From assembly GCA_964016885.1 (NCBI GenBank), contig OZ024743.1, positions 339,698,001-339,762,000 of the forward strand: DNA of 64,000 nt, given 5' to 3'. A program made the position numbers and the translations under genes. The notes under the pieces were generated by a model. It did not search any database. It was not told the origin of the DNA and was given only the letters and a program-made list of their open reading frames with translations. The DNA is from Eledone cirrhosa. Lineage: Eukaryota. This document shows, one piece after another, positions 1,396 through 47,000 of the stretch. Numbering within the stretch: the first letter of the stretch is position 1; each line of letters opens with the position of its first letter.

Positions 1396-1600
1396 AAAAC
1401 AAAGGGGGTGTGGTAAGATACCAGGTGGACCATAACGCACAGAGTACTCAATACCAGAGTACTCAATACTTAGGGTAGTAGAGTGGGTAATAGGAAAAGA
1501 GTCAGGACCCCGACGGCTGAGCTCCCGCCGTTTCGACAGCTAGATCCGAACTTCGGATCTAGCTGTCGCTCAGCCGTCGGGGTCCTGACTATTATCCTAT
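1396..1600 (-). mobile_element. Fold-back hairpin element copy A (GACAGCTAGATCCG subfamily) in (TA)n
   Basis: Inverted arms around CCGAACTTCGG plus the tail shared with the copies at 5145, 28964, 34634 and 44611. (TA)n on both sides. Confidence 0.85.
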
Positions 1601-3280
1601 ATATATATATATATATATATATATATATATATATATATATATATATATATATATAGTAGAATAATCGAGTATCGAAAAATCGGCGCACGAGTTCACGATA
1701 AACAAAATTCGAGATGAGCGGCAGAGGGCTCTATAATTCAAATAAATTAGAGCTATAACTATCGTTAAATACCGTCACACGTAGAATATGTCTACAATCA
1801 ACCAAATAACCGATAAGTTCGATATGGAAGATTCGGGACACTCAGATAAATTATCAATAAATCAATAAATGAAATGAATGTAAAATGCATACCCGGACCC
1901 ACTAGAGAGATGGAATATCTAGCTTCTTGGGTTTCTGTAAATCCTTAAACCGTCATCTATCAGCTCATATAAAAATATAAGACTTACAGATGCCGGGGGA
2001 CTGGAGTTACTTTATCAACGAGCTTCGTCCGAATGGATAGAAAGACAAGACCCATGCTAAAAAAACGCACATGGATTTCAGCAAGGGAGATATACTAGTT
2101 GAGGCTCCCAGCTTCGCCAAGGTTAACAAATGATAAGAGAAGGCCGGCAGAAGAGAAAACGTCTGTATTGAATGCATTGTCTTGTTTACAGTGTGTGTGT
2201 ATTGTGTGTGTTGCTGTGTGTTTGTGTATATATATATGTGTGTGTGTGTGTGTGTGTGTGTGTGTGTGTGTGTGTGTGTGTGTGTGTGTGTGTGTGTGTG
2301 TGTGTGTGTGTGAGAGAGAGAGTGTGAGAGAGAGAGTGTGTTCGTGTGAGTGTTCGTGTGTGTGTGTGAGAGTGTGTATGTGTGTGTGTGAGTGTTCGTG
2401 TGTGTAATCCACCGTTGGAATCGGAGACATAGGCCGCGAAACACGATCATCACTGACAACGAACTCGCTGAGAGCATCCCTTATGGTTGATTCCCAACTT
2501 GCTAGAAATAGCAGTCAGGTTGGTTAGCATACGTGGTATGTCTTTCTTCTTTCGTGTTATAAAATTAGTATAAATAAACTTTCCTGGATATACACTTATC
2601 CCAATCCTGTACATACTTTCCGATTGTCACTTTTCATTTTTTTCGTGTGATACGCGAAGGAACCAACCAGCAAACATCTCTCCTTTATATCTCTTTTATT
2701 TGTTCATGCAAAATATTTTTCAGCTAATTCTGTCGTACAATATACATCAGCAATCGTTATCTAATGTTTAAAACATATGAATAGCTGCGATATATGCACC
2801 TTATTAATAAAAAACGATATGAGAATTGAATACCATACTAAAGCGCCAGTAAGCTTGCTAAGAACCTGCAGATAGACATGTTAATAAATACAACATTTGG
2901 CTTGGGTAAACTTTAAGATGTTCTTTCATTGTAGGTTTCTTTTCTCCTTCTCTCCTTCCTCTCCTCTTCCTTAGCTCACCCTAGAGCATCCTACATACAA
3001 TTGACCATGCTTTTCCCAGATGAAAGCCAGCCACTTTTAGGGTTTGATCCTGAGCTTTGTTGATGGTAATCGCGAAGCTTAGTTTCTCTCTGTTGCTCTA
3101 CTAACATTTTTTTCTTCTGGAAAATATGATCTTGCGGCCAGGCTAGGACTTTTTGGGTGGCATATCGGCAGTAACAATGACGATAAGCCGTCTGTGCTTT
3201 CGTGAAATAAATACGTTTGTTTATATTTTGTTTTTGTGTATGCAAAAATATCTGTACACGAATATATAATTATATATATA

Positions 3281-3398
3281 TATTAAAATAACAGATTAAA
3301 GTTTAAGCAAAGAATCGCTGCTTTCACCCTTAACGGGATCTTCTAAAACTAAAAAAATCAATCTGTGAACGCAGAAGTAAATATTTCGAAAAACGTTG
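3281..3398 (-). mobile_element. Hammerhead-bearing pLTR-like repeat, inverted partner of 4063-4270
   Basis: Reverse complement of 4063-4180. Further fragments at 7504-7590 and 34895-34950. Confidence 0.7.
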
Positions 3399-4062
3399 TA
3401 ATCGAAAGAAAACAGGAAGATGATACTTTGGTTCGTGAAGACGTTAGGAATGTCATATAACCGGAAGTGTTGACATTTGGAATTTTAAAGAAGTGAATAT
3501 TTAAATAATGTCTTTAATCTTTTAACAAAATTCAGTAGACAAAAATACCCTCACTTTCTTACTTGGAAAAAGTTACATCTATGGTGCAAATTTGATCCAG
3601 CCGCTTGGCGGAAAGTTTGTTACTTACAAACGGCCGGCAGCTTTATAGTATAGATATATAGTTAATAAAGGAAACAATACAAACACAGGAATGCAAAAAT
3701 ACACAGTTTGGAGGAAATGGAGGAGAGTTCAACGTTTTGGATAGAAGTCTGTCATCAGCAAAGTTCGGATAAGGAGAGAACAGGTAGATGTGTGAAAGTA
3801 GAGTGAAAGTTAGGAAAGGAAAAGAGGACAAGGGGGTTTGGAGGAGAGTGATACGTAGGGGACGTGGGCGAAAGGTCCAGCCGAGGAGGGGGCCAAATTT
3901 AGGGTTCGAGGATGTCATGGGGGTGGCTCTGTGTATGTGCCGAAGGGAAGGTATTGGTAGATGTGCGTGGCTTCAGTCTCTGTGTGTGGACACATGGATC
4001 TCACTCACTCCCTCTATCCTCTCTCTCTCTCTCTATATATATATATATATATATATATATAT

Positions 4063-4270
4063 AAACGTTTTCTGAAATATTCACTTCTGCGTTCACAGAT
4101 TGACTTTGTTAGTTTCAGAAGATCCCGTTAAGGGTGAAAGCAGCGATTCTTTGCTTAAACTTTAATCTGTTATTTTAATAAATATTTGCTCTACGGTTCT
4201 TATATATTTGATATATATTTATCCTTATCGAGCCCTCTTTGGATTTTAGTCTTCAAATTTATTATTATTA
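4063..4270 (+). mobile_element. Hammerhead-bearing pLTR-like repeat in (TA)n
   Basis: 4111-4161 reads AGTTT-CAGAAGA-T-CCC/GGG-T-GAAA-GCA..TGC-TT-AAACT, a type I hammerhead topology with a U4A core change. Confidence 0.65.
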
Positions 4271-43259: not shown

Positions 43260-43605
43260 ATATATATATATATATATATTTATACATTTATACATTTATA
43301 TGTATACATATATATATATATGTATACATATATATATATATTTATACATTTATATGTATACATATATATATGTATACATATATATATATATATATACATA
43401 TATATATATATATATGTATACATATATATATATACATATATATATATATATGTATATATATGTATACATATATATATATAATATATATATATTATATATA
43501 TATTATATATATAATATATATATATTATATATATAATATATATATATATATAATATATTATATATATATATATATAATATATTATATATATATATATATA
43601 TAATA

Positions 43606-43995
43606 TACGATATTAAATAAATGGAAACTATATTTATAAAACCATATTTATTTCATTATATATATTTCAGGGATATCATATTAACAATATGTTATGCCTT
43701 CTTCAGACAAAATACAATATAGACAGTTTTATAAATAAATAGATTTGACATACCGTTCAACATCGACTTGTATTTGGAAAGTTGATTTGGCAGTGAAATC
43801 AAATCAACTGCCAAATCAACTTTCCAAATACAAGTCGATGTTGAACGGTATGTCAAATCTATTTATTTATAAAACTGTCTATATTGTATTTTGTCGGAAG
43901 AAGGCATAACATATTGTTAATATGATATCCCTGAAATATATATAATGAAATAAATATGGTTTTATAAATATAGTTTCCATTTATTTAATATCGTA
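43606..43995. repeat. 189-bp-arm palindrome carrying mirror-image hammerheads
   Basis: Arms 43606-43794 / 43807-43995, 12-nt spacer, one mismatch. CTGAAGA-AGG..CCT-GAAA-TATATA-TA motif at 43649-43714 (-). Confidence 0.93.
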
Positions 43996-44089
43996 AATAT
44001 ACTCTAAATACTTGTTGAGTGCTTTTATATCAGTTATAAATATTTACTAGTTGTAACCCAACAATTTAAATATAACTTTACATATATAT

Positions 44090-47000
44090 AATATATATAT
44101 ATATTATATATATATATAATCCTCACTTTCTAATATATATAATATATATATATTATACATATATATATATTATATATATATATTATATATATTATATATA
44201 TATATTATATATATATATATTATATATATTATATATATATATTATATATATTATATATATATATTATATATATATATATTATATATATATTATATATATT
44301 ATATATATTATATATATATATTATATATATATAATATATATATATCATATATATATAATATATATATATAATATATATATATTATATATATATATATATA
44401 ATATATATATATTATATATATATAATATATATATATTATATATATATATATATATAATATATATATATTATATATATATATATATATAATATATATATAT
44501 ATATATATAATATAATATATATATATAATATATATATATTATATATATATTATATATATAATATATATATATTATATATATATATATAATATATATATAT
44601 ATATATATATAACGAAGGAAATGTGGTAAGGAACCAGGTGGACCATAACGCACCAAAGTACTCAATACTTGAGGTAGTAGAGTGGGTAATAGGAACCAGT
44701 AAGACCCCGACAGCTGAGCTCAAGCCGTTTCGACGGCTAATTCAGTCCAGAATTAGCCGTCGAAACGGCTTGAGCTCAGCTGTCGGGGTCTTACTGGTTC
44801 CTATATATATATATATATATATATATAATATAATATATATATATAATATATATATATTATATATATATATATATATATATATATATATAATATAATATAT
44901 ATATATAATATATATATATTATATATATATATATATTATATATATATATTATATATATATATTATATATATATAATATATATATATTATATATATATATA
45001 TATATACTATATAATATATATATATATATATATATATATATATATATATATACTATATAATATATATATATATATACTATATAATATATATATATATATA
45101 TATATATACTATATAATATAATATATATATATATTATATATATATATATTATATATATATATATATATTATATATATATATATATATATACTATATAATA
45201 TATATATATTATATATATATATATATATATTATATATATATATATATATATATATATTATATATATATATATATTATATATATATATATATATATACTAT
45301 ATATATATATATATATTATATATTATATATATATATATATATATATATATATATATATATATTATATATATATATATATATATATATATTATATATATAT
45401 ATATATATATTATATATATATTATATATATTATATATATATATATTATATATATATATATATATATTATATATATATTATATATATATATATTATATATA
45501 TATATATTATATATAATATATATATATATATATATATTATATATATATATATTATATATATATATATTATATATAATATATATATATATTATATATATAT
45601 ATATATATTATATATATATATATATATATTATATATATATATATATATTATATATATATATATATATATATATTATATATATATATATTATATATATATA
45701 TATTATATATATATTATATATATATATATTATATATATATTATATATATATATATTATATATATATATTATATATATATATATTATATATATATTATATA
45801 TATATATATTATATATATATATTATATATATATATATTATATATATATTATATATATATATATTATATATATATTATATATATATATATTATATATATAT
45901 ATTATATATATATATATTATATATATATATATTATATATATATATATATATATATTATATATATATATATTATATATATATATTATATATATATATATTA
46001 TATATATATATATTATATATATTATATTATATATATATTATATATATATATATTATATATATATATATATATTATATTATATATATATATATATATATTA
46101 TATATATATATATTATATATATATATATATATTATATATATATATATTATATTATATATATATATATATATATTATATATATATATATTATATATATATA
46201 TATATATTATATATATATATATATATATATATATATATATTATATATATATATATATATTATATATATATATAATATATATATATATATATATAATATAT
46301 ATATATATATATATAATATATATATATATATATATATTATATATATATATATATATTATATATATATATTATATATATATATATATATTTATATATATAT
46401 ATAATATATATATATATATATAATATATATATATATATATATAATATATATATATATATATATATTATATATATATATATATATTATATATATATATTAT
46501 ATATATATATATATATATATATTATATATATATATATATATAATATATATATATATATATATAATATATATATATATATATAATATATATATATATATAT
46601 ATAATATATATATATATATATATAATATATATATAATATATATATATATATATATTATATATATATATTATATATATATATATATATATATATTATATAT
46701 ATATATATATATAATATATATATATATATATATAATATATATATAATATATATATATATATATATAATATATATATAATATATATATAATATATATAATA
46801 TATATATATATAATATATATAATATATATATATAATATATATATATATAATATATATATATATAATATATAATATATATATATATATATATAATATATAT
46901 ATATATATATATAATATATATATATATATATATAATATATATATATATATATATATAATATATATTTATATATATATAATATATATATATAATATATAAT

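Follow-up and report, generated by a model that had tools for sequence, protein, structure and literature searches.

How does a palindrome that carries a tail on one side only come to be present many times in the same genome? The question is raised by a 64,000-nucleotide stretch of Eledone cirrhosa DNA (assembly GCA_964016885.1, contig OZ024743.1, positions 339,698,001 to 339,762,000 of the forward strand; hereafter the window), in which a hairpin repeat embedded in (TA)n occurs as five near-complete copies, A to E, and two fragments. The original prediction, made from these letters alone, had proposed a non-autonomous fold-back retroelement family, mobilised by Penelope-like machinery, whose second arm is rebuilt at each insertion or homogenised afterwards. 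Our findings favour another origin, to which we assign a probability of roughly 0.72: the hairpins would be the shortest insertions of a (TA)n-targeting Penelope-like element (PLE), in which two cDNAs, primed across the cut in a (TA)n site, run off the 5' end of one RNA and are joined head to head.

The parent element and its hammerhead motif

The search for relatives covered the 3.0-Gb genome in 1,796 contigs. A search for longer hairpin centres retrieved the locus L086 (G000:C2:82697942-82700976), whose tail continues into an ATG, and the sequence of L086 led in turn to the parent, which consists of tandem 3,542-bp units with an open reading frame (ORF) of 717 amino acids. Each unit holds a single arm in the sense of the tail, then the tail, then 93 nt before the ATG. 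This is the non-inverted parent, attached to a PLE-type ORF, that had been suggested as a check, and it bears out the involvement of Penelope-like machinery.

The AlphaFold model of the 717-aa protein (pLDDT 93) has a telomerase reverse transcriptase (RT) as its top Foldseek match (3du5_A, E 8e-9), and the ORF contains a YRDD motif; searches against Pfam and PDB sequences returned no match for the protein. Among 7,997 homologues scored, 2,031 lie at E<=1e-20, and the best one carries PF01541 (GIY-YIG). By eye, the C-terminus is GIY-YIG-like (VIY..YIG with downstream R, E and N), with no direct profile or fold match for the domain. On the modelled fold, the parent is a PLE with a telomerase-related RT. 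The motifs RWR, DKT, CNCPDRSIC, CNLC and CKH, likewise read by eye, together with the (TA)n target, point toward membership of the Hydra clade, which is characterized by RWK-like, DKT, CxCx5C and CxxC/CxH motifs, the lack of CCHH and insertion into (TA)n (PMC8557442, cited here, like the other publications below, for the sections compared).

Because all bases of the short copies map on this autonomous element and the long copies share their ends, the repeat appears to be the shortest product of the intact 3,542-bp PLE and not, as had been predicted, a separate non-autonomous family. In this regard, a transposase-dependent miniature inverted-repeat transposable element (MITE) with TA target duplication would also present inverted arms flanked by TA; however, every base of the repeat can be placed on a retroelement whose parent has a single arm, and the tail lies outside the inverted arms, so that such an origin is barely conceivable and the earlier view that this is no normal MITE is upheld. 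As a further observation on the parent, more than 30 tandem repeats of a 55-58-bp piece of its ORF lie at the inner end of an array of five units (L154:7770-9588), possibly as a result of reiterated template jumping.

The arm of the repeat corresponds to the 3' half of a predicted type I hammerhead motif in the parent. In the youngest subfamily, the parent RNA is predicted to fold as a three-way junction with UUGAGAA, GAAA and GUC and a U3-A8 core, a variant described for PLE hammerheads (PMC4209133). The fold is no more stable than that of shuffled sequences (z=0.19) and has no Rfam match, and older subfamilies combine C3 with A8, an unmatched core; Rfam searches of the repeat gave only hairpin-driven miRNA matches, below threshold. 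The short copies hold half of the motif and lack the core. With the A of TCATTT in the repeat numbered +0, two candidate signals of hammerhead cutting were rejected: a surplus of arms ending at the predicted cut (+44 to +47; 6/46, p=0.16), and a fixed T/G mismatch between the arms at that position in 30 loci, which is an artefact of query bias and is absent in tail-anchored copies.

Insertion ends and priming

Insertions of every length end at TA +62 or TA +142 of the parent, 80 nt apart, and the one-sided tail, estimated earlier at about 80 bp, measures 80 nt. Exact patterns detected 21,662 tailed and 18,316 tail-less ends flanked by TATATA in the whole genome, and none with reversed-pattern controls, which places the repeat far above chance; tail ends run into TATATA in 21,662 cases, versus 599 with another base next, the two patterns differing slightly. 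A sample of 100 tail-anchored loci was examined, all on contig C1 and all with an exact tail-end match, and 76 of them have an adjacent inverted tail-less arm. Among long inverted pairs, one tailed and one tail-less end are combined in 8/8 cases, as well as in two further pairs.

A layout of head-to-head, 5'-truncated copies with a one-sided tail has been published for PLEs (PMC8557442; PMC3846280), and in vitro two internal RT start sites delimit the tail of Poseidon_Ac, both target strands being cut and extended (PMC11167929). By analogy with Poseidon_Ac, +62 and +142 may represent two internal reverse-transcription start sites, with the tail between them.

The inverted arm could also be the work of a single cDNA that snaps back and copies itself, in line with the self-priming favoured for palindromic PLE junctions in PMC3846280. 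Perfectly palindromic joints do occur, and in 39 of 42 copies the two arms carry matching subfamily marks. However, the matching arm is wholly absent from the tail-side part in 8 of the 76 copies with an inverted arm, and one copy (L077/L078) unites arms from two subfamilies; because of these cases, the second arm is no fold-back copy of the first. Moreover, long pairs with unequal arms are joined at unrelated points, and folding back would not account for the 18,316 exact tail-less ends. Folding back is thus largely contradicted, and we regard it as improbable. The earlier claim survives insofar as the second arm does seem to be rebuilt at insertion, though not from the first arm. It is likely, judging from these junctions, that both arms are copied anew at each insertion. 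The two arms stop no more than 1 nt apart in 18/76 pairs, and 62 different junctions are found in the 76 copies.

This diversity of junctions also bears on the idea of short hairpins as a self-propagating, MITE-like or short interspersed element (SINE)-like family, moved in trans with both arms inherited. Their very uniform size and recurring centres would suit such a family, but the 62 junctions, the presence of one centre in different subfamilies and the lack of shared one-arm mutations speak against it, as does the absence in the arms of an A>G excess such as RNA editing would leave (1/46 changes). In addition, the stretch of parent behind the tail end is missing from the short copies; by analogy with Poseidon_Ac, protein binding would be placed there. 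We consider this explanation very improbable.

A fixed stop at +0

The inner ends of the arms are not spread evenly over the parent. Of 100 tail-side arms, 55 start between +0 and +11, none between -12 and -1, 6 far upstream and 39 downstream of +11, while the 76 tail-less arms stop in these intervals in 54, 0, 1 and 21 cases, respectively. Genome-wide, only 2,448 arms retain upstream sequence. In public contigs, the depth likewise shows a step, with loose ends, at +0, +62 and +142; this depth does not reflect copy number, and the sample used for the assembly itself may be the source of the best run. Long copies read through the same point: among 30 loci with a 5' untranslated region and ATG, 26 continue past +0, 1 stops there and 3 begin downstream of the arm, and, once an array and an inverted pair are collapsed, 22 of the 23 independent long insertions that reach +0 a second time pass it (Fisher p 8e-14). 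Because the long insertions pass +0, a structural stall at this position is disfavoured.

Several details of the sequences point to run-off from an RNA end. Extra A runs extend past the three T of the parent in 10/100 copies, both arms end exactly at +0 in some joints, and L086, a captured template switch, has two stops at +1, between which a 4-nt match served for a jump of 105 nt into the ORF. The stop at +0 is therefore best described as probably the end of the RNA template. In such a case, one class of template RNA would have its physical 5' end at +0, generated by transcription start or by a cut in the loop of stem II; because +0 coincides with this loop, the cut seems as possible as the start. 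In this regard, PLE promoters have been located in the repeat (PMC2377424; PMC3846280). Priming near the +0 end would yield only 62- and 142-nt cDNAs, and long and tandem copies would derive from RNA uninterrupted at +0, either read-through or circular.

Alternatively, the same PLE might be primed twice and the short form be made at the DNA level, either by stalling of the RT at stem II or by collapse or cutting of long inverted insertions at the stem II hairpin. It fits this scenario that +0 falls precisely on the 3' side of the apical loop of stem II and that the stop points of the two arms correlate; in addition, long palindromes are unstable. However, long copies pass the inner +0 (22/23), collapse would keep loop bases while 0/176 arms end at -12 to -1, and the untemplated bases and template jumps at +0 fit run-off better, so that we consider an origin at the DNA level unlikely.

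Other results weigh against two primings followed by run-off at +0. The RNA end is deduced solely from genomic sequence, the initiator-like TCA context is not conserved, with other bases before +0 in the parents of other subfamilies, and a cap signature was absent, as G precedes +0 in 183/1,560 non-parental cases without enrichment of an extra base. The set of second passes was picked by similarity to one young copy, and the exact tail-end match required in the 100-copy sample favours young subfamilies; searches for a long parent of the subfamily of copies A and B gave two short copies or nothing. Furthermore, the 39 tail-side parts that stop well downstream of +11 indicate that trimming or ordinary truncation is also common, and the correlation between the stop points of the two arms (Spearman 0.37, p 0.0009) is what some deletion of the centre after insertion would give. 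A conserved initiator at +0 was rejected as a candidate, since TCATTT is found in some subfamilies only.

In retroviruses, internal priming near the RNA 5' end gives rise to minus-strand strong-stop DNA, a short cDNA of defined length. A tentative and rather doubtful extension of the proposal would be that Hydra PLEs replicate by way of a comparable step: the RNA would start inside the hammerhead, at +0, and both ends left by cutting a single (TA)n site would prime on it, at +62 and +142, giving two strong-stop cDNAs. These would either jump to a redundant 3' end, bounded by the hammerhead cut at +45, or switch to continuous RNA to form long and tandem copies, or, in about nine cases out of ten, anneal into a MITE-like hairpin. 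The likeness is one of analogy only, as the cDNA would here be target-primed, made twice and integrated without strand transfer. If this were true, some 20,000 hairpins would document, like fossils, strand transfers that failed, and the heteroduplex could still be read in their centres.

Copies of the repeat in the window

The five copies and two fragments previously reported in (TA)n are confirmed as follows:

1397-1597, minus strand: copy A, older subfamily; tail at 1397-1492 with a 15-bp duplication, hairpin at 1493-1597
5145-5312, plus strand: copy B, older subfamily; hairpin at 5145-5230, tail at 5231-5312
12081-12138, plus strand: single tail-less arm of the older subfamily, running into (TA)n
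21611-21663, plus strand: decayed single arm
28967-29076, plus strand: hairpin of copy C; inverted tail-less arm (parent +61 to +8), centre TGTACA, sense arm (+8 to +61)
29077-29156, plus strand: tail of copy C; 80 nt of the parent between the TA end points +62 and +142
34637-34821, plus strand: copy D, CGAGTAG subfamily; hairpin at 34637-34741, tail at 34742-34821
44612-44801, minus strand: copy E, youngest subfamily; tail at 44612-44691, hairpin at 44692-44801

A BLAST search of copy C against the window returned these seven known sites and, beyond them, one 16-nt chance match. Between +10 and +141, the sense arm and tail of copy E do not differ from the intact parent (132/132 bases), and the tail and arm of copy C show 130 identities and 4 mismatches to it; the sense arm of copy C contains the 3' half of the hammerhead motif (GAAA, helix III, GTC and a strand of helix I). 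Copy A, whose tail-less arm has an internal deletion, is more distant, with 119 identities, 19 mismatches and 16 gaps against the young parent (+4 to +141). In copy B, an inverted tail-less arm is followed by a tail-side arm with an internal deletion. Clean palindromes are therefore confined to C, D and E (arms of 58, 53 and 55 bp), and the palindrome with arms of about 55 bp that had been attributed to every full copy does not hold for A and B, each with a deletion in one arm. A nearly pure A/T repeat of about 4 kb (44082-48034) surrounds copy E.

Centres of the hairpins

Under the proposed two primings, the free cDNA ends would anneal in short registers, be trimmed or receive untemplated bases, and then be repaired; because of these steps the centres would vary from copy to copy and nevertheless recur. 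The best self-annealing of two cDNA ends at +0 is a 14-nt overlap with 8 paired bases, 3 of them terminal, and this register predicts, after resolution of mismatches, a 6-nt centre of the form [T/A]G[G/T][A/C]C[T/A]. Six nucleotides is the commonest centre length in the sample (9/42), and 7 of these 9 centres fit the predicted pattern. In the genome, 4,530 strand matches have the 6-nt centre length, versus 0 in the reversed control, and among the 55 loci listed of these matches, 45 fit the predicted centre, including copies C and E of the window; the centre of copy E is found in 24 of the 55 and that of copy C in 5. An identical centre was found in at least three subfamilies, and a 2-nt annealing register also recurs. 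Consequently, the earlier remark that the centre differs in every copy is valid for the five copies of the window, but not for the genome, where centres recur.

In the centres of L301/L302, L298, L293 and L076, the last 10-15 bases before +0 have been re-copied several times in short pieces, which looks like repeated restarts of the enzyme at the end of the template. Twin hairpins behind the two insertion ends were considered and rejected: both segments fold into small bulged hairpins, but the score of their sequence likeness (31) does not exceed that of the best background windows (35).

Subfamilies and concordance of the arms

Variants mirrored in both arms of copies C, D and E had been taken as private to each copy. 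The mirroring is real, but CAAGTAA, CGAGTAG and CCAGTAA/GACAG are subfamily marks shared genome-wide, and the variant set of copy E is the sequence of the intact parent; the truly private mismatches, one in copy C and two in the tail-side arm of copy D, are unmirrored. Arms were compared in 103 copies (the 100 tail-anchored loci plus C, D and E), 42 of which have both arms across 50 compared bases. Since three diagnostic sites in 50-nt arms give too weak a signal for separate arm trees, concordance and permutation tests were used instead. Both arms are concordant at the three diagnostic sites in 39/42 copies, where random pairing expects 10.5; of the three discordant copies, L176 is real, differing at a subfamily site, and two result from alignment gaps. 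Within subfamilies, pairing of arms by locus is no better than chance (permutation p=0.16), so that the expected pairing by locus does not extend beyond the subfamily. Rare changes are one-sided in 45 cases and mirrored in 2 among the 42 copies; therefore, the later homogenisation that had been considered did not take place. Arms co-vary via the subfamily of the template, because both are read from one one-armed template, and decay independently afterwards.

Relation to known systems

The PLE class, the Hydra clade and the architecture of inverted copy plus tail are already published. New are the fixed stop at +0, the long copies that pass it and the coincidence of the commonest centre with the best annealing register of +0 cDNA ends; in the literature searched, which included few subscription papers, no description of a fixed run-off point or of annealed cDNA ends at PLE junctions was found.

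With the Hydra clade, including Hydra-1_Obim and Penelope-13_HM (Craig et al. 2021, PMC8557442), the parent shares a single ORF with RT followed by a putative GIY-YIG-type endonuclease, the RWx, DKT, CxCx5C, CxxC and CxH motifs, the (TA)n target, a predicted hammerhead in the repeat and an inverted 5'-truncated copy. It differs in its hammerhead sequence from Hydra-1_Obim as tabulated there, in its unit of 3.5 kb versus <3 kb, and in the U3-A8 core of the youngest subfamily; about nine in ten of the sampled insertions here are 100-200-bp hairpins with a fixed stop. Head-to-head 5'-truncated copies, a tail at one end and junction palindromes are likewise shared with the inverted pseudo-long terminal repeats plus tail of PLEs (PMC8557442; for Adineta vaga, PMC3846280), although the tail is 80 nt here and 30-40 there, and the junctions described here favour two primings where self-priming was proposed (PMC3846280).

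Poseidon_Ac in vitro (Frangieh et al. 2024, PMC11167929) resembles the present family in two internal RT starts that define the tail, cutting and extension of both strands and an AT-rich target, and hammerhead cutting is not needed there. Its start sites lie in the ORF, whereas here they would lie upstream of the ATG, both at TA, and a fixed 5' run-off is not among its features reported in the sections compared. Animal non-LTR (long terminal repeat) retrozymes (bioRxiv 10.64898/2026.07.22.740005) are also short, hammerhead-related repeats derived from PLE repeats; in contrast, the short copies studied here are no tandem monomers and hold half a hammerhead only.

The origin of PLE inverted copies and one-sided tails is stated to be open in PMC8557442 and has been partly answered in vitro (PMC11167929). 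PLEs are the closest relatives of telomerase, and the present family offers near-identical intact ORFs, two exact ends, one exact stop and thousands of junctions. The junction data favour two primings over self-priming and provide base-level predictions that are testable in vitro. The family also shows that stumps of a retroelement can account for tens of thousands of MITE-like hairpins in an animal genome of 3 Gb.

Other elements in the window

Adjoining copy B, at 5420-6855 (plus strand), lies a 5'-truncated member of a second PLE family, with a GIY-YIG-type C-terminus at 5968-6339 and a TTGAGAA hammerhead-like core near 6636. Among its relatives, which share 97-98% identity with it, are open frames of 927 aa (L151, L152) in which the motifs RWK and CxCx5C occur. 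It was considered as a parent of the repeat and rejected, being of a different family. Three fold-backs in TA-rich DNA, at 42969-43264, 43606-43995 and 31132-31298 (arms of 147, 189 and 79 bp, each with a hammerhead-like core), are probably head-to-head stumps of other PLE families. An open frame at 40016-40420 (plus strand) without a Pfam match is EF-hand-like by eye and possibly a host exon. Broken pieces of non-LTR reverse transcriptases are found at 50100-52800 (minus strand; RVT_1 match at 51555-51995) and 17595-18020 (plus strand), and an abundant SINE-like repeat of about 200 bp (families D15-D20) is present at 12388-12582, 13837-13898 and about 25 more sites.

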